Of a DNA stretch of 64,000 nt, positions 7,579 to 18,087 are shown in pieces. The notes below the pieces were generated by a model. That model did not search any database. It worked only from the letters and a program-made list of their open reading frames with translations, and had not been told where the DNA came from. Source of the DNA: a virus; IMG/VR virus record IMGVR_UViG_3300017917_001030, positions 66,603 through 130,602 of that record; one strand, given 5' to 3'. The translations under genes were made by a program, and so were the position numbers. Each line of letters starts with the position of its first letter. The first letter of the stretch is position 1.

Positions 7579-7968
7579 ATGGTTAAGAACTTCATTGTAG
7601 GTAGCGACGTAGAAATCACGACAAAGTGGAAATCAAATCTGCTTTGGCGAGACTATGACGTCAACACTTTCAAGGGCAAAGTAGTTGCAAATCCTAAATG
7701 GCTTGACAACGACTACGTTTCCGTGTATACTGGGAATACAGATTACCCTGTATCCTATATTCACAAGAAGTTCATTGTGGGATTCGATATGGCTGAGAAT
7801 CGTAGCGATCTGCGAATATTCAAAGTCAAATCGAAGACTAAAGGAAGTGTCTACAATGTCACTTCCGTTGGTGGCAAGGTATCTTGCGATTGTGTTGGTT
7901 TCCAATTCCGCAGATACTGTAAGCATTCGGATTCAGTCAAGAAGCTTTTGGACAAAGAAAGTGCTTGA
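7579..7968 (+). CDS. SWIM-type zinc finger protein
   Basis: C-terminal CDC-x-GF-xx-RRYCKH. Confidence 0.75.
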   Translation: MVKNFIVGSDVEITTKWKSNLLWRDYDVNTFKGKVVANPKWLDNDYVSVYTGNTDYPVSYIHKKFIVGFDMAENRSDLRIFKVKSKTKGSVYNVTSVGGKVSCDCVGFQFRRYCKHSDSVKKLLDKESA

Positions 7969-8735: not shown

Positions 8736-8764
8736 TTGACAGGGTTTCTAAAAGGTGTTATAAT
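8736..8764 (+). promoter_or_regulatory. Sigma70 promoter at the start of the tRNA array
   Basis: TTGACA-N17-TATAAT with an extended -10 TG. Confidence 0.9.
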
Positions 8765-8807: not shown

Positions 8808-8821
8808 TTTGCATTCCAATT

Positions 8822-8895
8822 ACCCGGTTAGCTCAAAGGTAGAGCACACGACTGATAATCGTGAGACAGAGGATCGTTACCTCTACTGGGTACCA
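8822..8895 (+). tRNA. tRNA-Ile(GAT)
   Basis: Cloverleaf; anticodon loop CTGATAA; encoded CCA; T-loop ATCGTTA. Confidence 0.92.
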
Positions 8896-8967
8896 TATAA
8901 AAACACATTACGGCAACCTGCCTGAGGGAGAGGATACCGAACTAGTGTCGGGTAGTGTGTTTCTATA
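8896..8967 (+). ncRNA. Family-B long-stem spacer RNA, copy 1
   Basis: TATAAAAACACATTA...TAGTGTGTTTCTATA closing stem, identical to 11437-11523. Confidence 0.55.
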
Positions 8968-8975
8968 TAGTTTAT

Positions 8976-9052
8976 GCTCGGTTCGTCTAGCGGTCCAGGA
9001 CAACGGCCTTTCACGTCGTAGATCACGGGTTCAAATCCCGTACCGAGTACCA
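8976..9052 (+). tRNA. tRNA-Glu(TTC)
   Basis: Cloverleaf; loop CTTTCAC; CCA. Confidence 0.95.
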
Positions 9053-9058
9053 CAAATT

Positions 9059-9143
9059 GGAGGTGTAGGAAAATTGGTAACCCCAGCGGACTGTAAATCC
9101 GCCGCCCCTGGCACTACTTGTTCGACTCAAGTCACCTCCACCA
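9059..9143 (+). tRNA. tRNA-Tyr(GTA)
   Basis: Cloverleaf with long variable arm; loop CTGTAAA; CCA. Confidence 0.93.
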
Positions 9144-9148
9144 TATTA

Positions 9149-9257
9149 AGGATGCGAACAGCAATCTTTTTTAACTTTAAGCCAAACGAGTGGTCCGGTT
9201 CGATTCCGGCTTGTGGTGTAATGGTAGCATACCCGTCAAAAGTAAAAAGGCATCCTG
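9149..9257 (+). ncRNA. Family-A (Y-RNA/YrlA-like) RNA, copy 1, with a permuted T-arm/D-arm tRNA mimic
   Basis: AGGATGC-GAA-CAGCAA...GCATCCTG; internal CCGG-TTCGATT-CCGG followed by TGGTGTAATGGTAGCAT. Confidence 0.7.
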
Positions 9258-9265
9258 TTAATAAT

Positions 9266-9343
9266 GGCTAGGTGGCAGAGTGGTCCAATGCAGCGGATTG
9301 CAAATCCGTAAAGTCGTCAGTTCGAATCTGACTCTAGCTTCCA
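9266..9343 (+). tRNA. tRNA-Cys(GCA)
   Basis: Cloverleaf; loop TTGCAAA; U73; CCA. Confidence 0.93.
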
Positions 9344-9355
9344 ACAAAAAAGTGC

Positions 9356-9383
9356 TTGACTTTTTTAGTACAGGCATTATAAT
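9356..9383 (+). promoter_or_regulatory. Sigma70-type promoter within the tRNA array
   Basis: AAAAAAGTGC-TTGACT-N16-TATAAT. Confidence 0.8.
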
Positions 9384-9534
9384 AAGTACATAAATTAATA
9401 ACACGCCTCGCAGCGTTATTAAACTAGTGTTAGCTCTGCTAATTACTAGCGCAAATATAAACGGTGCATCAACGATGTGCTTTCGGTATCCGCGATAGAG
9501 ATACGGCTAAAGTTCGTAATGCCAAAAGTATTTA

Positions 9535-9609
9535 GGTCTCAAAGTGTTCATGGACGCACGCAAGCCTGTCACGCTTGAAGAAGGGGATCGTTACCCCTTG
9601 GGACCGCCA
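9535..9609 (+). tRNA. tRNA-Asp(GTC)
   Basis: Cloverleaf; loop CTGTCAC; G73; CCA; T-loop ATCGTTA. Confidence 0.92.
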
Positions 9610-9611
9610 AG

Positions 9612-9727
9612 ATTTAGTAAGTGCTGTTTACAGCAACCGTGTCACAAGTCTAGGGTTGAGGCTCTAGTTTAGTATGTTTACATACACCGTGTTGCAAGTG
9701 AAGGGTTGAGGCTCTTCCTTACTAAAT
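9612..9727 (+). ncRNA. Structured RNA with two tandem covarying 50-nt units
   Basis: ATTTAGTAAG/CTTACTAAAT closing stem; repeated hairpin-ACCGTGT-CAAGT-hairpin unit. Confidence 0.6.
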
Positions 9728-9748
9728 ATTTTTATCTCAAAGTTTTAT

Positions 9749-9823
9749 TCCGGAGTAGCACAGCGGTAGTGCAGTTGACTGTTAATCAATTGGTCGTAGG
9801 TTCGATCCCTGCCTCCGGAGCCA
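9749..9823 (+). tRNA. tRNA-Asn(GTT)
   Basis: Cloverleaf; loop CTGTTAA; CCA. Confidence 0.95.
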
Positions 9824-9828
9824 GTTAT

Positions 9829-9904
9829 GCGGGTGTAATTCAGTTGGTAGAATGCTTCCTTGCCAAGGAAGATGTCGAGAGTTCGAGTCTCTTCGCCCGC
9901 TCCA
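9829..9904 (+). tRNA. tRNA-Gly(GCC)
   Basis: Cloverleaf; loop TTGCCAA; U73; CCA. Confidence 0.95.
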
Positions 9905-9909
9905 GTTTT

Positions 9910-9969
9910 AGGATAGTAACAGCAATCAAAAAGCATACATTTGTAACTGTAAAAGCAAACTCTATCCTG
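9910..9969 (+). ncRNA. Family-A RNA, copy 2 (short)
   Basis: AGGATAG-TAA-CAGCAA...CTATCCTG. Confidence 0.65.
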
Positions 9970-9979
9970 TTATTTTTTA

Positions 9980-10056
9980 GCCCCGGTGACGGAATTGGTA
10001 TACGTGTTGGTCTTAGAAACCAAATTTTAGGAGTTCGAGTCTCCTCTGGGGCACCA
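9980..10056 (+). tRNA. tRNA-Leu(TAG), short variable arm
   Basis: Cloverleaf; loop CTTAGAA; A73; CCA. Confidence 0.9.
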
Positions 10057-10059
10057 AGT

Positions 10060-10226
10060 TTTGTAAGTGTAGATGTTGAGAAAGCATGTATAGGCATATA
10101 TGTGTGAGGCGGATATGAAACCCCGACAAGTAACAACTAGTACTACGTACCTCTAACCAGTCCGCGGCTTATCTAGAAAATACTGGTAAAATGGTTCCGA
10201 ATGAGGGAGGCGGAACTACTTACAAA
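10060..10226 (+). ncRNA. Putative structured RNA of about 167 nt
   Basis: TTTGTAAGT/ACTTACAAA closing stem directly after a tRNA CCA; no credible ORF. Confidence 0.4.
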
Positions 10227-10274
10227 TTCATTCTCGCTTTGACTTATGGCGTACAATAGGATAAATTATAAGTC

Positions 10275-10342
10275 ATTTTTAAAGTACATTATGAAAAGAA
10301 TTCCGAGATAAATCGGTAGGTAACATAGTGTATTTTAAAAAT
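10275..10342 (+). ncRNA. Family-B long-stem spacer RNA, divergent copy
   Basis: ATTTTTAAAGTACATTATG...CATAGTGTATTTTAAAAAT stem. Confidence 0.45.
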
Positions 10343-10343
10343 T

Positions 10344-10419
10344 GGGGCCATAGCTCATCTGGGAGAGCGCCTGTTTTGCAAGCAGGAGGCGGTCGGTTCG
10401 AGTCCGACTGGTTCCACCA
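10344..10419 (+). tRNA. tRNA-Ala(TGC)
   Basis: Cloverleaf; loop TTTGCAA; G3:U70; CCA. Confidence 0.95.
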
Positions 10420-10423
10420 AATT

Positions 10424-10498
10424 GCCTGGATAGCTCAGGGGTAGAGCGTCTCCCTTACAAGGAGAGGGTCCGCGGTTCGAAACCGTGTCCAGGTACCA
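10424..10498 (+). tRNA. tRNA-Val(TAC)
   Basis: Cloverleaf; loop CTTACAA; CCA. Confidence 0.95.
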
Positions 10499-10503
10499 AT
10501 CAT

Positions 10504-10580
10504 CGGGGTGTAGCGCAGCCTGGTAGCGCATCTGCTTTGGGAGCAGGAGGTCGTGAGTTCGAGTCCCACCACCCCGACCA
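10504..10580 (+). tRNA. tRNA-Pro(TGG)
   Basis: Cloverleaf; loop TTTGGGA; CCA. Confidence 0.95.
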
Positions 10581-10595
10581 TCATAAGGAAATGCT

Positions 10596-10862
10596 ATGTC
10601 ATATGTACCATTGAGAGATAAAGTTCTGTTGGAAGAAACAGAAAAAGCTACAGTCACAGAAAGCGGAATTTATTTAGGTGACGCTCGTGCAGATAACAAT
10701 ACACGACCAGGTCGTGTTCTTGCAGTAGGTCCAGAAGTGTCCGAAATCAAAGCAGGAGATATTGTTTACGTGATGTGGCAAAAATCTCATATCATCAAAG
10801 AAGGCGATAAATTGCTTGCAATCGTAGGCATAGATGATATAATTGCAGTATTAGAAGATTAA
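10596..10862 (+). CDS. groES: Co-chaperonin GroES (Cpn10)
   Basis: PLRDKVL...TESGIYL...GRVLAVGP...DIIAVLE matches the GroES pattern; TAAGGA ribosome-binding site. Confidence 0.88.
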   Translation: MSYVPLRDKVLLEETEKATVTESGIYLGDARADNNTRPGRVLAVGPEVSEIKAGDIVYVMWQKSHIIKEGDKLLAIVGIDDIIAVLED

Positions 10863-10863
10863 T

Positions 10864-10940
10864 GTGACCATAGCTCAGTAGGATAGAGCATCTGCCTTCT
10901 AAGCAGACGGTCGGGGGTTCGAATCCCTCTGGTCACGCCA
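10864..10940 (+). tRNA. tRNA-Arg(TCT)
   Basis: Cloverleaf; loop CTTCTAA; CCA. Confidence 0.95.
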
Positions 10941-10945
10941 GTTTT

Positions 10946-11009
10946 AGGATAGTAACAGCAACCACAATTTACACTAGACTTATAATCTAACCAGTAAAAT
11001 TCTATCCTG
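10946..11009 (+). ncRNA. Family-A RNA, copy 3, carrying an anticodon-stem-loop-like hairpin (TAGA-CTTATAA-TCTA)
   Basis: AGGATAG-TAA-CAGCAA...CTATCCTG. Confidence 0.65.
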
Positions 11010-11013
11010 TTAT

Positions 11014-11089
11014 TCCCTCTTCGCCAAGTTGGTAAGGCATCGGATTTTGATTCCGACATTCGGTGGTTCGAGTCCATCAGGGGGAGCCA
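11014..11089 (+). tRNA. tRNA-Gln(TTG)
   Basis: Cloverleaf; loop TTTTGAT; CCA. Confidence 0.93.
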
Positions 11090-11095
11090 ATTAGT

Positions 11096-11174
11096 TGGGG
11101 CGTAGTGTACTCTGGTATTAGCACACTGGTCTTTGAAACCAGTAGATTGGGTTCGATTCCCGACGCCCTTACCA
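11096..11174 (+). tRNA. tRNA-Gln(TTG), second divergent copy with U1:U72 mismatch
   Basis: Cloverleaf; loop CTTTGAA; CCA. Confidence 0.85.
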
Positions 11175-11280
11175 TATTATTTTTAAACGGAGAACGACAT
11201 GAAACGAGGTAAACTCTAGTGTCATCCCAGGTCCCGTATTGGTCTTGGATGGCACGTAAAATCAATTTAATTACGACCAT

Positions 11281-11357
11281 CCCTTGCTGGCGTCAACGGT
11301 TAGCGTACCGGACTCTTAATCCGCGAGGTCTCAGTTCGAATCTGAGGCAAGGGACCA
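11281..11357 (+). tRNA. tRNA-Lys(CTT)
   Basis: Cloverleaf; loop CTCTTAA; CCA. Confidence 0.92.
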
Positions 11358-11361
11358 ATAT

Positions 11362-11436
11362 GGGATTGAAGCTTTAAGGTGAAGCAACGGACTTTTAATC
11401 CGTAGAACTGGGATCGTCGGCCCAGCAGTCCTACCA
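11362..11436 (+). tRNA. tRNA-Lys(TTT), atypical 8-nt T-loop
   Basis: Cloverleaf; loop CTTTTAA; T-loop ATCGTCGG; CCA. Confidence 0.85.
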
Positions 11437-11523
11437 TATAAAAACACATTAAACGCCCACCCATCGTGGTTGATGGCCGGTAGTTGCGTCTCTAACCAAG
11501 CCGCTTCATAGTGTGTTTCTATA
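11437..11523 (+). ncRNA. Family-B long-stem spacer RNA, copy 2
   Basis: Same 15-nt arms as 8896-8967 with a different interior. Confidence 0.55.
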
Positions 11524-11615
11524 TGGTAGTTTAACTCCGTGGTTAACTCCGCCAGGCCGATACGCTCTATAGAGCGTGTCGAAGCAAGGAGCTACCATAA
11601 CCTAAAAAGATAAAA

Positions 11616-11807
11616 ATGTATATTTCACAAATAGCAAGAATCAACGATCATTATATGGGTCGTGATCGAGAAAAAGTTTATGTTACTTTGAAAGATGAAA
11701 ACGGAGCTACTTATACCAGATATGAGCAGTACCTTTTCACGCCTTACAACAAGCAAGGTAAACTAGAAGAATTACAAAAAGGTAATACCATAGATTTAAA
11801 AGCTTAG
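11616..11807 (+). CDS. Hypothetical protein, 63 aa
   Basis: ORF filling a gap in the tRNA array. Confidence 0.6.
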   Translation: MYISQIARINDHYMGRDREKVYVTLKDENGATYTRYEQYLFTPYNKQGKLEELQKGNTIDLKA

Positions 11808-11882
11808 CGGTCCTTAGTTCAATGGATAGAATGCCATGCTTCGAACTTGGAGATGTGGGTTCGATTCCTGCAGGACCGGCCA
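11808..11882 (+). tRNA. tRNA-Arg(TCG)
   Basis: Cloverleaf; loop CTTCGAA; CCA. Confidence 0.88.
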
Positions 11883-11886
11883 ATTT

Positions 11887-11962
11887 GCCCTGGTGACGGA
11901 ACGGTATACGTGTCGGATTCAAAATCCGAATTCTGAGAGTTCGAATCTCTCCTGGGGCACCA
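11887..11962 (+). tRNA. tRNA-Leu(CAA), short variable arm
   Basis: Cloverleaf; loop TTCAAAA; A73; CCA; paralog of 9980-10056. Confidence 0.9.
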
Positions 11963-11964
11963 AT

Positions 11965-12040
11965 GGTATTCTTAGTGTAGTGGTCTGCACACGACGTTGT
12001 GACCGTCGTAGTATGAGTTCGATCCTCATAGAATACCCCA
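11965..12040 (+). tRNA. tRNA-His(GTG)
   Basis: G-1:C73 pair; loop TTGTGAC; CCA. Confidence 0.93.
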
Positions 12041-12049
12041 AACAATTAT

Positions 12050-12125
<76 letters not shown>

Positions 12126-12130
12126 AATAT

Positions 12131-12220
12131 GGAAGCGTGGTAGAGTGGTCTAATACGTCAGCCTTGAAAACTGAAGATTCTTAATCGGGTCCGTGAGTTC
12201 GAATCTCACCGCTTCCACCA
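12131..12220 (+). tRNA. tRNA-Ser(TGA)
   Basis: Long variable arm; loop CTTGAAA; CCA. Confidence 0.93.
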
Positions 12221-12322
12221 GTATTCTTGCAAGAAGAAAACACTGCGCCCTGAGCCTCACCGGGCGGTATGTCAGTTACAAAACAGTAGGGTAAGAGTCC
12301 CAAGGAGAGGCACGAATACAAT

Positions 12323-12413
12323 AGTGAGATGCGAGAGTTGGTCTAATCGGCCTCCCTGGAAAGGAGTGCATCGTGCAAACGGTACTAGGGTTCGAATCCC
12401 TATCTCACTGCCA
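12323..12413 (+). tRNA. tRNA-Ser(GGA)
   Basis: Long variable arm; loop CTGGAAA; CCA. Confidence 0.9.
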
Positions 12414-12415
12414 AC

Positions 12416-12503
12416 GGAAGATTAACTGAGTAGGACTCAGCACTGATTCGAAACCAGTTGGACTCAGAAATGGGTTGGGGATCGAGACCTCAGTCTTCCA
12501 CCA
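12416..12503 (+). tRNA. tRNA-Ser(CGA) with a tRNA-Sec-like extended D-stem
   Basis: GGAAGAT/GTCTTCC acceptor stem; CTGAG/CTCAG D-stem; loop TTCGAAA; long variable arm; CCA. Confidence 0.8.
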
Positions 12504-12505
12504 GG

Positions 12506-12534
12506 TTGACACTAAAATCAAAAGATGTTATAAT
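12506..12534 (+). promoter_or_regulatory. Sigma70 promoter
   Basis: TTGACA-N17-TATAAT with an extended -10 TG. Confidence 0.9.
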
Positions 12535-12554
12535 TAATTTTTAAGGAGTTAAAG

Positions 12555-13076
12555 ATGCCAGCAGTATTCATTGTTAGTGATACGCACTTCGGGCATGCTG
12601 GTGTCTGCAAATTCTTACGTGAAGATGGCACCAAGCTTAGACCATGGGACTCACCTGAAGAAATGGATGAGGCAATGGTTAAGGCCTGGAACGAAACAGT
12701 TAGACCTAATGATAAAGTTTATCACCTCGGCGACGTAGTTATTAATCGCAAAGCTCTACACATTCTTGGTAGACTGAATGGTGATAAAGTTCTTATCAAA
12801 GGCAACCATGATATTTTTAAGTTAGAGGATTATACTCAATACTTCAGAGATATTCGTGCATATCATGTAATGAACAACTACATTCTTTCCCACATTCCTG
12901 TTCACGCATCGTCAAAGGGAAGGTTTGCAGGTAACATTCATGGGCACCTACACTCTAACAAAGTAATGACTATGGACGGTAACTTTGTTGATCCATGGTA
13001 TCAGTGTGTTTGTGTAGAGCAAACTGATTTTAGGCCTATTACATTTGAAAATGTATTGAAACGATTTGAAAAATAA
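12555..13076 (+). CDS. Calcineurin-like metallophosphoesterase
   Basis: SDTHFGH, HLGD, KGNHD, SHIP and HGHLH motifs. Confidence 0.92.
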   Translation: MPAVFIVSDTHFGHAGVCKFLREDGTKLRPWDSPEEMDEAMVKAWNETVRPNDKVYHLGDVVINRKALHILGRLNGDKVLIKGNHDIFKLEDYTQYFRDIRAYHVMNNYILSHIPVHASSKGRFAGNIHGHLHSNKVMTMDGNFVDPWYQCVCVEQTDFRPITFENVLKRFEK

Positions 13077-13166
13077 GGAAGACGGGCAGGACGGTAATGC
13101 AGCGGATTGCTAATCCGTAGACCGTAGTAATACGGTCAGTGGGTTCGACTCCCACGTCTTCCACCA
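13077..13166 (+). tRNA. tRNA-Ser(GCT)
   Basis: Long variable arm; loop TTGCTAA; CCA. Confidence 0.93.
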
Positions 13167-13171
13167 GTTTT

Positions 13172-13285
13172 AGGATACTTGCAGCAAATTCACAGCAATG
13201 AAAGCCGTGTGTTTTAGGTTCGATTCCTAAATTCCCCGTTAGGAGAATTAGCTCAATTGGTAGAGCAACGAAAAAGAGTATCCTG
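13172..13285 (+). ncRNA. Family-A (YrlA-like) RNA, copy 4: circularly permuted tRNA mimic
   Basis: AGGATAC-TTG-CAGCAA...GTATCCTG; T-arm 13214-13230, loop-closed acceptor stem 13231-13248, TA plus D-arm 13249-13266. Confidence 0.8.
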
Positions 13286-13293
13286 TTATTTTT

Positions 13294-13385
13294 GCCAGCG
13301 AGACTGGGTAGTCAGAGAGGTCTTATAAACCTTTTAGCGCCAGATTAGCGTTCTTGAGAGTGTTCGAGTCACTCCGCTGGTACCA
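13294..13385 (+). tRNA. Atypical tRNA with TAT anticodon (Ile?), long variable arm and minimal D-loop
   Basis: GCCAGCG/CGCTGGT acceptor stem; GACT-GGGT-AGTC D-arm; loop CTTATAA; TTCGAGT T-loop; ACCA end. Confidence 0.75.
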
Positions 13386-13389
13386 TTTT

Positions 13390-13464
13390 GGTGATATGAC
13401 GTAGACGGATGCGTAGCGGTTTCATAAGCCGACGAGGTTGGATCGTTACCAACTATCACCACCA
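13390..13464 (+). tRNA. tRNA-Met(CAT), elongator or Ile2
   Basis: Cloverleaf; loop TTCATAA; T-loop ATCGTTA; CCA. Confidence 0.85.
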
Positions 13465-13472
13465 TATATAAT

Positions 13473-13549
13473 GCGTCCTTAGCATAACTGGAGAATGCAC
13501 TGGTTTACGAAGCCAGGGGATGGGAGTTCGAATCTCTTGGGACGCACCA
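13473..13549 (+). tRNA. tRNA-Arg(ACG)
   Basis: Cloverleaf; loop TTACGAA; CCA. Confidence 0.93.
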
Positions 13550-13555
13550 TATAAA

Positions 13556-13629
13556 GCTCCTATAGTTAAGTGGTATAACGTATCCTTGGTAAGGATAAAT
13601 TCTGAGTTCAATTCTCGGTGGGAGCACCA
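13556..13629 (+). tRNA. tRNA-Thr(GGT)
   Basis: Cloverleaf; loop TTGGTAA; CCA. Confidence 0.93.
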
Positions 13630-13644
13630 ACAAAGGAGTTACTT

Positions 13645-13824
13645 ATGAGCGGCAAAGGTTCCAAACCAAGACCATTCAGTGTAGATAGTGATACCTACAG
13701 TAATAATTGGAATGCAATTTTCGGTAAGAAAAAAGACAATACTGGTACAGATAAGAATGAATATTATGATGTACTAAGTACAGAAGAATCATTAACAGAA
13801 AACGAAAAAGATAAAACAGAATAA
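13645..13824 (+). CDS. Small hypothetical protein (MSGKGSKPRPFSV...WNAIFGKK)
   Basis: AAGGAG ribosome-binding site before ATG 13645. Confidence 0.75.
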   Translation: MSGKGSKPRPFSVDSDTYSNNWNAIFGKKKDNTGTDKNEYYDVLSTEESLTENEKDKTE

Positions 13825-13828
13825 TTAT

Positions 13829-13902
13829 GCATCCCTGATGTAATGGCAGCATGACGGTCTCCAAAACCGTTCGTCGGGGTTCGAGTCCCTGGGGGTGTGC
13901 CA
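13829..13902 (+). tRNA. tRNA-Trp(CCA)
   Basis: Cloverleaf; loop CTCCAAA; CCA. Confidence 0.93.
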
Positions 13903-13982
13903 ATATTCGTGAGCAGGTTTAATTTCGATCTCAGCGGCCCTGACGATCAAAAATTAAAACCTTTTTATTAATACCCTGACGG

Positions 13983-14011
13983 TTGACAGAGTCATTGAAA
14001 GACATTATAAT
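13983..14011 (+). promoter_or_regulatory. Sigma70 promoter
   Basis: TTGACA-N17-TATAAT. Confidence 0.88.
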
Positions 14012-14031
14012 AATGGTATAGTAAGTTAAAT

Positions 14032-14109
14032 GCGGGTAGACAGGACAAGGGGCGTCCAGCAGCCTTCCAAGCTGAAGATCGCGGAGTTCGACTCTCCCTA
14101 CCCGCTCCA
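14032..14109 (+). tRNA. tRNA-Gly(TCC), apparent 8/4 fold
   Basis: GCGGGTAG/CTACCCGC acceptor stem; GGAG/CTCC T-stem; loop CTTCCAA; U73; CCA. Confidence 0.85.
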
Positions 14110-14127
14110 ATTTTGTTAGGTGGTACT

Positions 14128-14607
14128 ATGAGAAAGCAAATTAACATCGAAGAAATCAAGTCGTTTATCGACGCCCAGAGTCCCGAAACCAAAATTTACA
14201 TTGGTGCGGATTCAGAACGTTACAAACGTGATGGTGTTTGGTATGCCGACTATACTCTTGCTGTTGTAGTACACATCGACGGTCGTCATGGTTGTAAGAT
14301 TTTCGGTGAAGTTCAAACCGAAATCGACTATGACAAAAAGAACAGTCGCCCTGCAATGCGACTAATGAACGAAGTTTACAAAGTATCAGAACTATATCAC
14401 AAGCTTGTTGATGTTGTTGGTGATCGAGAAGTCCAAATACATCTTGACATCAACCCGCAAGAATGTTATAATAGTTCAATAGTAATTCAACAAGCCGTAG
14501 GTTATATCAAAGGAACTTGTAACATTATTCCGATGGTTAAACCGAAAGCTTTTGCAGCAAGCTATGCCGCAGACCGACTAAAGGAAGTCTTGGCGCTTGC
14601 AGCTTGA
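14128..14607 (+). CDS. RNase H-like YkuK-family protein
   Basis: IYIGADS, RLMNEV, IHLDIN and KPKAFAASYAAD motifs. Confidence 0.85.
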   Translation: MRKQINIEEIKSFIDAQSPETKIYIGADSERYKRDGVWYADYTLAVVVHIDGRHGCKIFGEVQTEIDYDKKNSRPAMRLMNEVYKVSELYHKLVDVVGDREVQIHLDINPQECYNSSIVIQQAVGYIKGTCNIIPMVKPKAFAASYAADRLKEVLALAA

Positions 14608-14613
14608 GAATAA

Positions 14614-14688
14614 GCCGAAGTAGCACAACGGTAGTGCAGCGCTCTTGTAAAGCGAAGGTTGAGGGTTCGATTCCTTTCTTCGGCACCA
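14614..14688 (+). tRNA. tRNA-Thr(TGT)
   Basis: Cloverleaf; loop CTTGTAA; CCA. Confidence 0.94.
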
Positions 14689-14694
14689 GTTATT

Positions 14695-14921
14695 AGGATG
14701 AGTACAGCAGTCACAAAACGAAAATAAAGTACTGCCCATTCACGGAGGACCACCGTAAGGTGTAATTTTATGGGCTATGGGGCATACCTGAAATAAAATA
14801 GCGATGCTGGTTAACCAGATAGACTAACATACTCGAATGTATGTTTGATTTCAGTGGGGAATTCGCCCGAAAGGGAGCACTGGGGTTCAAGAACCAAGTT
14901 AATACTAACCCGACCATCCTG
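14695..14921 (+). ncRNA. Family-A RNA, copy 5 (long, 227 nt, multi-hairpin cargo)
   Basis: AGGATGA-GTA-CAGCAG...CATCCTG. Confidence 0.55.
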
Positions 14922-14932
14922 CTTATATTATT

Positions 14933-15029
14933 AGAATAGGTTCAGCAAACATCTAGCGGTGTAATACCCGCATTATAGGAAGGTGAGTTTCGAGTTTTCA
15001 CCATAATCAAAAAGTAGAAAACTATTCTG
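14933..15029 (+). ncRNA. Family-A RNA, copy 6, directly upstream of the Ro60-like gene
   Basis: AGAATAG-GTT-CAGCAA...CTATTCTG (compensatory change); internal hairpin with a TTCGAGT-containing loop. Confidence 0.65.
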
Positions 15030-15073
15030 ATGTATAGGTTAAAATAAATCATAACCTGAAAGTGAGAAAAAAT

Positions 15074-16510
15074 ATGAATACTTTTGTTGAAGCAGTAGCA
15101 AATCAAGAAGCCCGTACCACTAACGGTATGAAGGCTCGTAAGTCCACCGCATCCGCTGTTGTAGATTTGTTCTACAATATTGGTGCATCCCGTGGCAAGA
15201 ATGTTATCCCCGGCTTTACTGCCGCACTTGCAGAGAACCGTGACTTGGCACTTCGTGTTGCAGCATGGGCTCGTGATGTGCGTGGTGGTGCAGGTGAACG
15301 ACAACTCTTCCGTGACATTCTTGTCTACTTGGAAAAGTACGACCCCGAAGCAGCTAAGGCTCTTTTGGCTAAGGTACCTGAGCTGGGTCGTTGGGACGAC
15401 TTGTTCGTCTTTAAGACCAAGGAGCTAAAGGAAGCAGCATACACTATGTTGGGTGACGCATTGCGTGAACGCAACGGTCTGGCTGCTAAGTGGACTCCTC
15501 GTCAAGGCCCTATTGCTTTGGAAATCCGTAAGTTCTTCGGCATGTCGCCTAAGTTCTATCGTAAGTCCTTGGTTAACCTAACTAAGGTCGTTGAACAAGA
15601 TATGTGTGCTAAGAACTGGGATAACATCAACTTCTCTCATGTTCCTTCGGTTGCGGCATCCCGTTACAAGAAGGCATTTAACCGTAACACTGAAAAGTAT
15701 GCAGAATACGTAAAGTCGTTGGTTAAGGGAGATAACCCGGAAGTTAAGGTCAACGCAGGCGCAGTATATCCATATGATGTAGTGAAGGGAATCATCCCTA
15801 ACTCTTATGTCAAAAGCGCTTTTGACAAGACAGAGCTTGACCTAATTGAAAAGCAATGGGAAGCTCTTCCTAATTACGTAGGCGATGCTAACATTCTTCC
15901 TTTGGTTGACGTTAGCGGGTCGATGTCTTGTCCTGTTGGTGGCTATGGTTCTAAGAATAAGATGTCCTGTATGGATGTTGCTGTTTCGTTGGGACTTTAC
16001 CTTGCGGACAAGAACAAGGGCAAGTTCAAGGATACTTTCTTGACATTTAGCTCTTCGCCAGAACTACTTACTCTAAAGGGTAATATTGTTCAAAAGGTTA
16101 CACAAATGGTTGCTTCTAAGTGGGGAATGTCCACCAACCTACACGCAGCATTTTCAAAGATTCTGTCTGTAGCGAAGAAAGGTAATGTTCCGCAAGAAGA
16201 AATGCCAGATATGGTATTGATCTTGTCCGACATGCAATTCAATGCTTGCATTGAGCATGACGACAGTGCAATCAAAATGATTGCTCGTAAGTACGAAGAA
16301 GCAGGCTACACCATGCCTAAGGTTGTATTCTGGAACTTGAATGCTGCATATGGTAACACACCAGTGAAGTTTGACAAGTCTGGTACTGCTTTGGTATCTG
16401 GTTTTAGCCCATCTATTGTTAAGCCTTTGTTGGCAGGCAACCTTGAAACTTTCACCCCAGAAAGTGTCATGTTGCAGACCATCATGCAAGACCGTTACGC
16501 GGTATTGTAA
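15074..16510 (+). CDS. DUF2828-like / TROVE(Ro60)-like helical-repeat plus vWA protein
   Basis: RDVRGGAGER, GRWDDL and AKWTPR motifs; C-terminal vWA with MIDAS DVSGSM, STNL and ILSDMQF, plus VFWNL; alternative GTG start at 15062. Confidence 0.8.
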   Translation: MNTFVEAVANQEARTTNGMKARKSTASAVVDLFYNIGASRGKNVIPGFTAALAENRDLALRVAAWARDVRGGAGERQLFRDILVYLEKYDPEAAKALLAKVPELGRWDDLFVFKTKELKEAAYTMLGDALRERNGLAAKWTPRQGPIALEIRKFFGMSPKFYRKSLVNLTKVVEQDMCAKNWDNINFSHVPSVAASRYKKAFNRNTEKYAEYVKSLVKGDNPEVKVNAGAVYPYDVVKGIIPNSYVKSAFDKTELDLIEKQWEALPNYVGDANILPLVDVSGSMSCPVGGYGSKNKMSCMDVAVSLGLYLADKNKGKFKDTFLTFSSSPELLTLKGNIVQKVTQMVASKWGMSTNLHAAFSKILSVAKKGNVPQEEMPDMVLILSDMQFNACIEHDDSAIKMIARKYEEAGYTMPKVVFWNLNAAYGNTPVKFDKSGTALVSGFSPSIVKPLLAGNLETFTPESVMLQTIMQDRYAVL

Positions 16511-16635
16511 GTGCTCAATTCTGACAGCACGTTAAACACGGTCAGACGTCGATCTTAAATGACTGCGCCGGCACTACGCAAGGTGTCTCCGTACTCGGTA
16601 AGCGGAACTAATTTCAATTTTGGTTAACCTATTGG

Positions 16636-16664
16636 TTGACGAAAATTTGCCAAGGCTATATAAT
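16636..16664 (+). promoter_or_regulatory. Sigma70 promoter
   Basis: TTGACG-N17-TATAAT. Confidence 0.85.
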
Positions 16665-16675
16665 AAGTGTTTTAT

Positions 16676-16758
16676 GCGGGTGTGGTGAAATAGGTAGACA
16701 CAGGAGACTTAAAATCTCCCGCTTCGGCGTGCTGGTTCGAGTCCGGTCACCCGTACCA
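16676..16758 (+). tRNA. tRNA-Leu(TAA)
   Basis: Long variable arm; loop CTTAAAA; CCA. Confidence 0.95.
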
Positions 16759-16771
16759 TTATTCTAAAACT

Positions 16772-17236
16772 ATGAAAGATAATATGTCACTAACTTTACA
16801 AAATATTGAAAGTGCTTTGGCGGGTGAGTCTATGGCTCATATCAAGTATCGTTACTTTGCCAAAATTGCACGTGAGGAAGGCTTCGAAGAAGTCGCAAAA
16901 CATTTTGAACATACTGCAGATCAAGAAATTCTTCATGCTTGGGGTCACCTTGAGCTGTTGATTGGTAAGCCTAATACCAAAGAATGCCTTGAAAAAGCTA
17001 TTGCAGGTGAGACTTATGAGTATACTGAAATGTATCCTAAGTTCGAGCATCAGGCAAAAGCAGAATCTAATATCGAAGCAGTTAAAGAGTTCAACGAACA
17101 AGGTCGTGAATCCTTGCAGCATGCTCAAGAATTTAAAGCAGTATTGGCAAAAGCAGAAAAGCGCTTTGCTGCTCTTAAGGGTGTCGAGAAGCGTCATGCT
17201 GAAGCATACCAAAAAGTTCTTGGAGGTCTAGCATGA
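16772..17236 (+). CDS. rbr: Rubrerythrin (ferritin-like diiron protein)
   Basis: ALAGESMA, AREEG, E-x-x-HA, AIAGETYEYTEMYP and EKRHA motifs; start could instead be ATG 16784. Confidence 0.9.
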   Translation: MKDNMSLTLQNIESALAGESMAHIKYRYFAKIAREEGFEEVAKHFEHTADQEILHAWGHLELLIGKPNTKECLEKAIAGETYEYTEMYPKFEHQAKAESNIEAVKEFNEQGRESLQHAQEFKAVLAKAEKRFAALKGVEKRHAEAYQKVLGGLA

Positions 17237-17388
17237 GCGATAATCAATACGAATACAAGCATGTCTGTCCTGTTTGTGACTATGTTCATGAGGACAATGA
17301 AACTACTCCATTCGATCAAATGCCTGCTGATTATGTTTGCCCAGCATGCGGTGTCGAAAAAGATTGGTTTGATAAACGAGTTGCATGA
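17233..17388 (+). CDS. Rubredoxin, 51 aa (not in the ORF track)
   Basis: MSDNQYEYKHVCPVCDYVH...MPADYVCPACGVEKDWF has two CxxC motifs; ATGA overlaps at both ends. Confidence 0.88.
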   Translation: MSDNQYEYKHVCPVCDYVHEDNETTPFDQMPADYVCPACGVEKDWFDKRVA

Positions 17389-17780
17389 TTGATTGTCTAG
17401 TCATCGGTGATTCTATTGCCGTAGGTGTTCAGCAGTTTAGGCAAGAGTGTGCGATCTATGCTAAGGTAGGTATTAATAGCAGAGATTGGAACAACAAGTT
17501 TATCGGCAAAGACCTACGTGCAAATACAGTTATTATTAGCCTGGGGTCTAACGACTCCGGCAATATTAAGACTGCTGCAGAGCTAAACGAACTAAGACAA
17601 TCGGTAACATCCAAAAAAGTAGTTTGGATTTTGCCTTCTAATAATAGTGACAAACGAGACATCGTAAAATTCATAGCAGAAAAATACGGTGATATTGTGT
17701 TGGGTGTAAATCAACTATCCAAAGACGGTGTGCATCCAACAGTCGCTGGTTATAAAGAATTAGCAAATAATACAAAATAG
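17385..17780 (+). CDS. SGNH/GDSL hydrolase-like protein
   Basis: IGDSIA, SLGSND and DGVHP blocks. Confidence 0.85.
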   Translation: MIDCLVIGDSIAVGVQQFRQECAIYAKVGINSRDWNNKFIGKDLRANTVIISLGSNDSGNIKTAAELNELRQSVTSKKVVWILPSNNSDKRDIVKFIAEKYGDIVLGVNQLSKDGVHPTVAGYKELANNTK

Positions 17781-17785
17781 TTTTT

Positions 17786-17862
17786 GCGCCTGTAGCTCAG
17801 TTGGTTAGAGCAGTGGACTCATAATCCATTGGTCGCGGGTTCAAGTCCCTCCGGGCGCACCA
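17786..17862 (+). tRNA. tRNA with CAT anticodon (Ile2-like or Met)
   Basis: Cloverleaf; loop CTCATAA; CCA. Confidence 0.92.
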
Positions 17863-17877
17863 TTTAACGAGGTAATT

Positions 17878-18087
17878 ATGTCCAATCAAGTAACATCAGA
17901 AGATGCAGTCAACCAAGTAGGCAATCGTTACGATCTTGTTTTGATCGCAGCACGCCGAACACGTGAATTGAAGCGTGGGCATAAGCCATTGATTGATTCA
18001 AAGCATAAGCCAGCAGTAACGGCTCTAAATGAAATTGAACAAGGTAAAATTGGCAGAGATTACCTGTTAAAATTGAGAAAACGGTAA
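17878..18087 (+). CDS. rpoZ: RNA polymerase omega subunit homolog
   Basis: VTSEDAV..VGNRYDLVLIAARR...HKPAVTALNEI.QGKIG matches the RpoZ pattern; GAGGT ribosome-binding site. Confidence 0.9.
   Translation: MSNQVTSEDAVNQVGNRYDLVLIAARRTRELKRGHKPLIDSKHKPAVTALNEIEQGKIGRDYLLKLRKR

Follow-up and report, generated by a model that had tools for sequence, protein, structure and literature searches.

In the present study, we analysed a window of 64,000 nucleotides (nt) of viral DNA, the latter half of a virus record of 130.6 kb (IMG/VR record IMGVR_UViG_3300017917_001030, positions 66,603 to 130,602; about 72% complete by estimate). We found that an array of transfer RNA (tRNA) genes in this window carries an element, here called A4, whose core is a complete tRNA cloverleaf in circularly permuted order. 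Its acceptor end is closed by a 4-nt loop, and its chain ends leave from the 5' strand of the anticodon stem. In our assessment, A4 is probably (about 0.62) a discrete non-coding RNA of ~117 nt and a Y-RNA-like partner of a DUF2828/DUF7788 Ro-like ring protein encoded downstream. The observations behind this reading are the structure of the element, its conservation and covariation, a handle that it has in common with other RNAs, and its linkage to a gene for a protein of predicted Ro60 fold.

A permuted cloverleaf on a constant handle

In A4, the T arm is followed by a sealed acceptor-like hairpin of 7 base pairs (bp), then UA and the D arm, and the whole is enclosed by an 8-bp stem (Table 1). 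An earlier reading of the DNA letters (the sequence-only reading) had described the T arm, the 7-bp acceptor-like stem with a GTTA loop and one mismatch, the TA and the D arm, and all of them were found at the positions it gave. The facing CGT and ACG, which it had taken as the start of an anticodon stem, were present as well, and GC/AATGAAA/GC extended this stub, giving a stem of 5 bp with a loop of 7 nt. Because this hairpin prolongs the stub, the anticodon arm is kept, and the chain is interrupted within the 5' strand of its stem. The description of A4 as a tRNA sealed at the acceptor end held, whereas its supposed opening at the anticodon loop had to be corrected.

RNAfold recovered the helices of A4 at -31.1 kcal/mol (z = -2.79), with 2 of 200 shuffled sequences folding as well. 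When 13242-13270 was joined in silico to 13195-13238, ARAGORN called a tRNA over the whole 73 nt; A4 in its native order gave no tRNA call by ARAGORN. G18G19 and a TTCGA T loop were also present. At the 11 adjacent tRNA-tRNA junctions of the array, the corresponding acceptor positions were paired at 1-4 of 7, versus 6 of 7 in A4. Inspection of the A4 junction revealed no bulge-helix-bulge but a plain 8-bp helix with single strands of 6 nt and 14-15 nt beside it. Models of the transfer-messenger RNA family, including the permuted form, gave no match at A4 at E up to 10, and pair 3:70 is A.C, not G3:U70.

To follow the element in relatives, we used the loci of 80 viral contigs encoding DUF2828/DUF7788 proteins of 64-81% identity. 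A covariance model (R1) was built from nine A4-type sequences; the sequence of locus L035 and element A1 of the window, both misaligned by MAFFT, were left out of the seed alignment. R1 gave 438 matches at E <= 1, and all 300 among the matches listed were on the + strand. We aligned 18 distinct A4-type sequences, which scored 55.7-130.9 bits with R1. Standard pairs filled 96.3% of 481 pair cells, versus 67.4% with shuffled 3' partners and 41-49% after sliding by 1-3 columns, and both-side changes occurred at 19 of 27 pairs; these counts lean towards the structure, since the alignment was fitted to that of R1 and the sequences are related. All seven pairs of the acceptor-like helix changed on both sides (99.2% of cells paired), as did three of five in the T stem and two of four in the D stem (100% in each), and the three pairs of the distal anticodon-arm hairpin helix covaried as well (85.7%). 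The tertiary pair 15:48 was complementary in all 18 sequences (A:U in 9, G:C in 5 and U:A in 4), and U8:A14 was likewise kept in all 18. By eye, the 3-bp stub appeared as CGT/ACG, CGC/GCG and CTC/GAG, and the 7-nt loops at the anticodon-arm site of the homologues included the canonical-looking CTTCTAA, CTGAAAA and CTTGTAA. The acceptor stem was exactly 7 bp in most homologues and longer by tens of base pairs in 2 of the 18 (L051 and L054). We have high confidence that A4 encodes a real, conserved RNA that is predicted to fold as a sealed permuted tRNA.

Six RNAs of the tRNA array, A4 among them, share a constant handle, and all six are upstream of the DUF2828/DUF7788 gene. The handle is a 7-8-bp helix with an unpaired UnCAGCAA motif, an A-rich linker and a 3' GUUR tail. 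A scan of the whole record for 5' AGGAT-N-(2-6 nt)-CAGCA with 3' N'-ATCCTG returned five elements, all on the + strand within the tRNA array. A2 and A3 are ~63-67 nt long with one small hairpin each, and A5 and A6 are longer. The ~200-nt interior of A5 had no Rfam match, and long A5-like members also stand just upstream of the Ro-like gene in relatives.

A strict regular expression for paired handles, run over the 80 relatives' loci and the window, found 122 handle-bearing elements (91 unique). All 122 were on the + strand, which is that of the Ro-like gene, and the 1255 tRNAs that ARAGORN called in the 80 contigs were all on the strand of that gene. Among 103 distinct handle-bearing hits, all 8 handle pairs showed both-side changes, with 92.6% of cells paired. 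In 91 distinct full-length rows, the motif columns held U in 81, C in 80, A in 68, G in 89, C in 86, A in 88 and A in 85. Four columns of the A-rich run before the 3' handle strand held A in 73-83 rows, and the tail columns held G in 90, T in 90 and T in 87, followed by G in 60 or A in 29. By analogy, such a covarying helix with an invariant unpaired motif would be the usual signature of a protein-binding site. A looser scan (helix of at least 7 bp, CAGCA, G) over 89 sources gave 335 matches on the + strand versus 42 on the - strand; it was used for strand asymmetry only, as it yielded many false hits at 6 bp and some in coding regions at 7 bp.

Two further pairings within the handle were considered and rejected. 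A pseudoknot of CAGC with the 3' GUUG tail was judged unsupported: the second motif position changed from A to C in 13 of 91 rows, its partner U was unchanged in the examples read by eye (L062 and L074), and the last tail base was A in 29 of 91 rows. By eye, pairing of NNCAG with CUGNN was compatible with A2 and A3 of the window, but the relatives did not fit it.

The handle carries different interiors. Many members of 51-71 nt bear, by eye, a 4-5-bp hairpin with a 7-nt loop of anticodon type, such as CTTGTAA, CTTTTAA, CTGTTAA or CTGGAAA. At least three members (L004:2640, L017:2170 and L047:549) contain a tRNA body in normal order, whose shortened acceptor stem runs into the handle. Crude regular-expression classes divided the 91 unique elements into 11 permuted, 3 in normal order, 9 with a T arm only, 1 with a D arm only and 67 with neither, and they undercount, since several long-stem permuted copies were scored as neither. 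Of the 122 elements, 115 had an upstream tRNA, and 58 of these started 4-8 nt past its end; 45 of the 97 with a downstream tRNA ended 1-9 nt before it. About half of the handle elements occupy tRNA-like slots.

The Ro-like neighbour gene and the handle in cultured phages

The 478-amino-acid (aa) protein encoded downstream of A4 matched Pfam PF25043 (DUF7788) at 9.8e-49 and PF11443 (DUF2828) at 1.9e-25. Its fold was taken from an alignment-based AlphaFold2 (AF2) model, which reached a predicted local distance difference test score (pLDDT) of 93.9 with a 99-sequence alignment (single-sequence AF2: pLDDT 38.9). The 12 best Foldseek hits in the PDB were all Ro60/TROVE proteins (E 1.6e-8 to 1.9e-6; query TM-score, TMq, 0.37-0.64; 504-570 columns), and the top matches included Xenopus and human Ro60, D. 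radiodurans Rsr and the Ro60 of Thermus phage phiLo (9kop, 9l5y). The hits that followed were isolated vWA domains with E > 3e-3. In the model, a helical-repeat ring precedes a vWA domain with a DxSxS MIDAS motif (adhesion site dependent on metal ions), and DVSGSM was invariant in the protein alignment. The model indicates that the DUF2828/DUF7788 protein has a Ro60-like fold. A phmmer search of the 478-aa protein against PDB sequences returned nothing useful.

With matches to 7999 of the 8000 candidates scored, and to 6217 representatives of 50%-identity clusters at E <= 0.001, the protein family is a large one. Named phage records with a member numbered 710, among them those of Felix O1-like coliphages, of Listeria P100-like phages and of phages of Campylobacter, Vibrio and mycobacteria, and some mycobacteriophage copies are annotated as 'Ro-like RNA binding protein'. 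In many phages, the DUF2828 gene lies at the edge of a tRNA array.

Handle elements were also found beside the gene in cultured phages, in which its DUF2828/DUF7788 identity was checked with Pfam (Table 1). CAGCAA was present in the elements of bumzen, JoeDirt, phiM7 and P100. The sequence of the handle helix varied between phages (AGACCGTT, TGGACTC, GAGTCA, AGGAATC and others), with CAGCAA and the G after the 3' strand persisting. The bumzen element was conserved in 246 of 252 matching records, mostly without annotation. As controls, we searched genomes that lack DUF7788. The tRNA region of T4 gave only partial junction hits of 15-21 bits with R1, and mycobacteriophage Bxz1, which has a true TROVE protein, gave an R1 match in the tRNA-like part only, with the CAGCAA columns gapped.

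Some further features of these phages were observed. In Aeromonas phage PX29 (L085), an annotated 'tRNA-OTHER' and a two-piece 'tRNA-Leu' at 9639-10067 overlap three weak tandem R1 hits (23.9-26.2 bits), and these may be mis-annotated handle RNAs. An RtcB-type RNA ligase is annotated in Listeria phage P100plus (L086) at 8809-10020, 1.3 kb downstream of the DUF2828 gene. Mycobacteriophage LeBron (cluster L1) is reported to encode an RNA ligase and a polynucleotide kinase besides a Ro-like protein, and all three were toxic on overexpression (PMC13148394, text available).

Setting in the tRNA array

ARAGORN placed 31 tRNA genes at 8822-17862 of the window, all on the + strand, and 28 of them passed the Rfam tRNA cut-off; the odd tRNA(UAU) that follows A4 was below it. 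A pattern scan revealed no terminator-like site on the + strand between the promoter at 12506-12534 and A4. In a megablast search of the region against named phages, the sole match was tRNA-Trp.

Table 1. Coordinates of A4, its sister RNAs, neighbouring features and elements of cultured phages (window positions unless a phage is named).
Feature	Position	Strand	Remarks
Permuted tRNA-like RNA (family member A4)	13172-13288	+	between tRNA-Ser(GCU) and odd tRNA(UAU)
A4, handle helix 5' strand AGGATACT	13172-13179	+	pairs with 13277-13284 (sequence, fold)
A4, unpaired conserved motif UnCAGCAA, here TGCAGCAA	13180-13187	+	column profile of relatives
A4, distal anticodon-arm mimic GC / AATGAAA / GC (13195-13196, 13197-13203, 13204-13205)	13195-13205	+	sequence and fold
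A4, CGT, stub 3' strand, tRNA positions 41-43	13206-13208	+	pairs with ACG 13268-13270
A4, variable-loop equivalent GTGTT, positions 44-48	13209-13213	+	last base pairs with D-loop position 15
A4, T arm TTAGG-TTCGATT-CCTAA	13214-13230	+	sequence
A4, closed acceptor-like hairpin ATTCCCC / GTTA / GGAGAAT	13231-13248	+	6/7 paired, one A.C
A4, TA (UA, positions 8-9; 13249-13250) and D arm GCTC-AATTGGTA-GAGC (13251-13266)	13249-13266	+	sequence
A4, A26, ACG stub strand (13268-13270), A-rich linker AAAAAG	13267-13276	+	sequence; A-rich run kept in relatives
A4, handle helix 3' strand AGTATCCT (13277-13284) and 3' tail GTTA	13277-13288	+	sequence; tail column profile
A1	9149-9260	+	handle, T arm, D-like arm, no acceptor hairpin; R1 37.5 bits, full length
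A2	9910-9972	+	handle and small hairpin
A3	10946-11012	+	handle and hairpin, loop CTTATAA
A5	14695-14924	+	handle and ~200-nt interior
A6	14933-15032	+	AGAATAG/CTATTCT handle, UUCAGCAA motif, directly upstream of Ro-like gene; by eye, outside the AGGAT-based pattern
Gene of 478-aa DUF2828/DUF7788 protein	15074-16510	+	478-aa open reading frame 15074-16507; directly after A5 and A6; start 1.8 kb downstream of A4
Sigma-70-like promoter, 12/12 consensus	12506-12534	+	upstream of an open reading frame, tRNA-Ser and A4; consensus match only
tRNA-Ser(GCU)	13077-13166	+	ends 5 nt before the A4 handle
Odd 92-nt tRNA, anticodon UAU, long variable arm	13294-13385	+	ARAGORN only; starts 5 nt past the A4 tail
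Escherichia phage bumzen (Felixounavirus), locus L082	2591-2719		R1 53.9 bits; also short ones in tRNA spacers: 1949-2018, 2115-2172, 2502-2575
Mycobacterium phage JoeDirt			three elements in tandem immediately after the gene, the middle one resembling a permuted tRNA; R1 44.3 bits, Rfam YrlA 39.8
Sinorhizobium phage phiM7	4587-4705		R1 54.6 bits
Synechococcus phage BUCT-ZZ01 (cyanophage)	7627-7757		R1 53.6 bits; others on both sides of the gene
Listeria phage P100plus	5777-5888		R1 22.5 bits; one of three short elements just upstream of the gene, other two by looser scan only

Several other features of the array were recorded. Perfect 12/12 matches to the sigma-70 promoter consensus on the + strand of the tRNA region were found at 8736-8764, 13983-14011 and 14444-14472 besides the one in Table 1, and 11/12 matches at 9356 and 16636. 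A 173-aa open reading frame (ORF) at 12555-13076, inside the stretch from promoter to A4, had a weak calcineurin-like phosphoesterase match (PF12850, 25.8 bits; cut-off 27). The ORF at 14113-14607, just upstream of a tRNA-Thr, A5, A6 and the Ro-like gene, matched Pfam RNaseH_like (PF04308, 8.3e-17) and may be part of the same system as the handle RNAs and that gene. Rfam placed a tRNA that ARAGORN missed at 13390-13461 (42 bits); its anticodon, by eye, is CAT, and its T loop, GGATCGTTACC, is unusual and recurs in the tRNAs at 8822 and 9535. A second repeated element after tRNAs, ATATAAAAACACATTA ... TAGTGTGTTTCTATAT around unrelated interiors, was seen by eye at 8896-8967 and 11437-11523. Two tandem 50-nt units, 78% alike and each with a small hairpin, lie at 9625-9724 between tRNA-Asp and tRNA-Asn. 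The ORFs interleaved with the tRNAs (10596-10862, 16772-17388 and 17878-18087) were read by eye as GroES-like, rubrerythrin-like, rubredoxin-like and RNA polymerase omega-like.

Relation to Y RNAs, rival explanations and significance

YrlA RNAs, reported from 254 bacteria and 22 phages in the vicinity of Ro60 genes, are described as tRNA mimics with the order V (variable)/T/closed acceptor/D and a 5' GNCGAAN0-1G motif as the proposed Rsr contact, as given in the text available of PMC4201824 (Chen et al. 2014). The preprint of a YrlA crystal structure likewise describes a close tRNA mimic without a free CCA end (10.1101/312249; Wang et al. 2018). A4 resembles YrlA in many respects: an end-to-end stem is followed by a V hairpin, the T arm, the closed acceptor-like hairpin and the D arm; tRNA tertiary pairs, including the covarying 15:48, are kept and there is no free CCA end; and there are several different Y-like RNAs per locus. 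The siting within 4 kb of a same-strand gene may be a further likeness, as that gene is predicted to have the Ro60 fold but belongs to DUF2828/DUF7788. A4 differs in that UnCAGCAA and a fixed 3' GUUR tail take the place of GNCGAAN0-1G, in its partner candidate, in its embedding in a tRNA array in a tRNA-like slot, and in a handle that also carries anticodon-stem-loop look-alikes and unpermuted tRNA bodies. The Rfam YrlA model (RF02553), which the sequence-only reading had named as a check, aligned to A4 over its positions 1-114, and thus over the full length, at 36.5 bits, which is under the gathering cut-off of 69 bits. The YrlA topology claimed by that reading was borne out by the element order and by this alignment, and a gene of predicted Ro60 fold starts 1.8 kb downstream on the same strand; identity with YrlA was not supported, in view of the score, the absent motif, a partner outside Pfam TROVE and the retained anticodon arm. 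The best-supported reading is that A4 would be a YrlA-like RNA of the Ro/Y-RNA kind that fails two tests defining YrlA.

Several observations weigh against a Y-RNA-like partnership. Besides the score below the YrlA cut-off, GNCGAAN0-1G is absent from A4, whose 5' part reads UGCAGCAA; its sole CGAA, at 13269-13272, is close to the 3' end and is not kept in homologues. The AAUGAAA loop lacks U33, which makes it a poor mimic of a genuine anticodon loop. On the protein side, Pfam TROVE (PF05731) was matched neither in the genome nor by the 478-aa protein when scanned with Pfam, with Bxz1 gp220 matching it as a positive control, and a sequence profile placed PDB Ro60 chains first but weakly (E 0.026-0.085), in the MIDAS region only. 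Among cultured phages, Aeromonas PX29 and Campylobacter CPX gave weak R1 hits only (21-26 bits), and the scan for helices of at least 7 bp found none in PX29, two + strand matches in CPX (raw) and one doubtful element in Vibrio VH7D. The gene neighbourhood could also reflect common residence in tRNA arrays and not physical partnership, and the pair counts carry the bias stated with them. As for the cut-off, Bxz1 gp220 is a true TROVE and Ro60-vWA protein, and the RNA upstream of its gene scores only 32.5 bits with Rfam YrlA, suggesting that 69 bits is strict and not decisive for phage members.

That common residence is the core of the strongest competing explanation, in which the handle RNAs are real but the handle is a processing, stability or spacing cassette, or the site of another factor, and the DUF2828 gene is nearby by way of tRNA regions. 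The tRNA-like slots of about half of the elements and the position of the gene at the border of tRNA arrays in many phages would fit. Against it stand JoeDirt, in which the elements directly follow the gene and the 9.4-kb stretch has 18 annotated features, none of them a tRNA, and T4, whose tRNA array has no handle in a genome without DUF7788. An invariant unpaired motif with a covarying helix is moreover typical of a protein-binding site, and Ro60-fold proteins are known, in the parts of the papers available, to bind RNAs of stem plus motif (PMC4201824, PMC12135203). We consider this explanation unlikely.

Much less probable is a working permuted or split tRNA gene, in which RNase P and 3' trimming would open the acceptor loop, and the product would receive CCA, be charged and decode. 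The re-permuted core is indeed a full 73-nt cloverleaf, most homologues have an acceptor stem of exactly 7 bp, and the M. smegmatis YrlA, also with a 7-bp stem, is reported to be cut by RNase P and to receive CCA (PMC4201824, text available). The loop without U33 and the A.C mismatch at 3:70 argue against it, as do the acceptor stems extended by tens of base pairs in 2 of 18 homologues and the non-tRNA cargo on the same handle. The handle would still stick out of the anticodon stem, inspection showed no bulge-helix-bulge at the junction, and neither RtcB nor Rnl2 was found in the 130-kb record (~72% complete). A chance product or decayed remnant, in which the 3' half of a tRNA gene adjoins the 5' half of the gene that follows, is hardly credible. 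Dimeric tRNAs are known false positives of YrlA models, according to the available text of PMC4201824, and partial R1 and Rfam matches do fall on tRNA junctions. In the array, however, two junctions reached only 17.8 and 18.7 bits with the YrlA model and covered R1 positions 25-98 only, whereas A4 matched both models over their full length; the acceptor positions of the junctions were paired at 1-4 of 7 against 6 of 7; and covariation of all seven acceptor-hairpin pairs across homologues contradicts this origin.

For the reading of A4 as a Y-RNA-like partner, the following course is proposed. A4 would be made within the tRNA-array transcript and freed by the enzymes that process the neighbouring tRNAs, and its 3' end would be set by RNase P acting on the tRNA that follows. 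Its ends run through the A-rich linkers into the constant handle, the putative docking site for the phage DUF2828/DUF7788 Ro-like ring protein; from linkage and analogy, we lean to the view that A4 docks on this Ro-fold protein by the handle in the manner of a Y RNA. The tRNA-shaped module may then be the variable 'effector' end and contact a factor that recognises tRNA, on the model put forward for YrlA and Rsr, and sister RNAs on the same handle would display bare anticodon-stem-loop look-alikes or unpermuted tRNA bodies. The likeliest use would be to deal, during infection, with host activities directed at tRNAs, whether as decoy, tether or quality control, and serving as a decoy or tether for factors directed at tRNA would be plausible. 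A bolder version, which we regard as doubtful, is a 'display rack' of tRNA parts formed by the DUF2828 Ro-like ring and the handle RNAs, baiting, sequestering or reporting on host tRNA-cutting or tRNA-sensing immune enzymes. The changing repertoire on its one constant handle would, with the same reservation, range from bare anticodon stem-loops carrying specific anticodon-like triplets to whole tRNA bodies and to permuted tRNAs sealed like A4. Such a rack would explain the reported action of a Felixounavirus Ro-like gene against a defence system.

Permuted tRNA genes of red and green algae have the cloverleaf's 3' half placed upstream of its 5' half, an intervening loop lies at the acceptor end, and they are processed via a bulge-helix-bulge and a circular intermediate into working tRNAs. 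A4 has the same 3'-half-first order and loop at the acceptor end; in contrast, it has no bulge-helix-bulge, its anticodon-like loop is without U33, and it carries a conserved handle instead. The T4 RNAs C and D are small, stable and of unknown role. Annotated as stable RNAs in the T4 tRNA cluster, they resemble A4 in being small RNAs encoded in line with phage tRNAs, and the 3' part of rnaC is T-arm-like, but they have no AGGAU/CAGCAA handle and no full-length R1 match, and T4 has no DUF7788 gene.

Closer to the proposed system are three phage reports, each considered in the text available. The phiRo60 of Thermus phage phiLo binds two adjacent Y-like RNAs, Yrl1 and Yrl2, chosen by a CGAA motif (PMC12135203). 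The likeness lies in a phage-encoded protein of Ro60 fold whose gene is preceded by two adjacent Y-like RNAs, and the solved protein is among our top fold matches; in contrast to A4, these RNAs are picked by CGAA in a stem-bulge-stem and are not described there as tRNA mimics, and the protein has a TROVE domain. In the Felixounavirus Bas63, the Ro60-like gp130, encoded upstream of tRNA genes, was reported to counter the Ppl defence, and the authors guess that some Bas63 'tRNA genes' are Y RNAs (PhageMaP preprint PMC11482910). A Ro60-like gene directly upstream of Felixounavirus tRNA genes is the common feature, with gp130 likened to a DUF2828 protein by description only; in the portion available no RNA is identified there, whereas the Felixounavirus bumzen provides four concrete candidates here. 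Jumbo-phage TROVE proteins have also been mentioned with 'a tRNA-like partner' (PMC7824862). In the literature searched, we found no paper describing the handle RNAs and no named RNA partner of the DUF2828/DUF7788 family; some copies from cluster-L mycobacteriophages may be in the supplementary tables of Chen et al. 2014.

For the DUF2828/DUF7788 family, the present analysis provides definite, conserved candidate RNAs that can be recognised by a simple handle. Particles of Ro60 and Y RNA have been described from animals, bacteria and a few phages; here permuted tRNA mimicry recurs with a second, distinct pair of handle and candidate protein. Since handle RNAs occur in cultured phages of E. coli, Salmonella, Listeria and Mycobacterium, their binding, processing and part in defence evasion can be tested at once. 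The results also indicated that phage 'tRNA arrays' contain unannotated non-tRNA genes.

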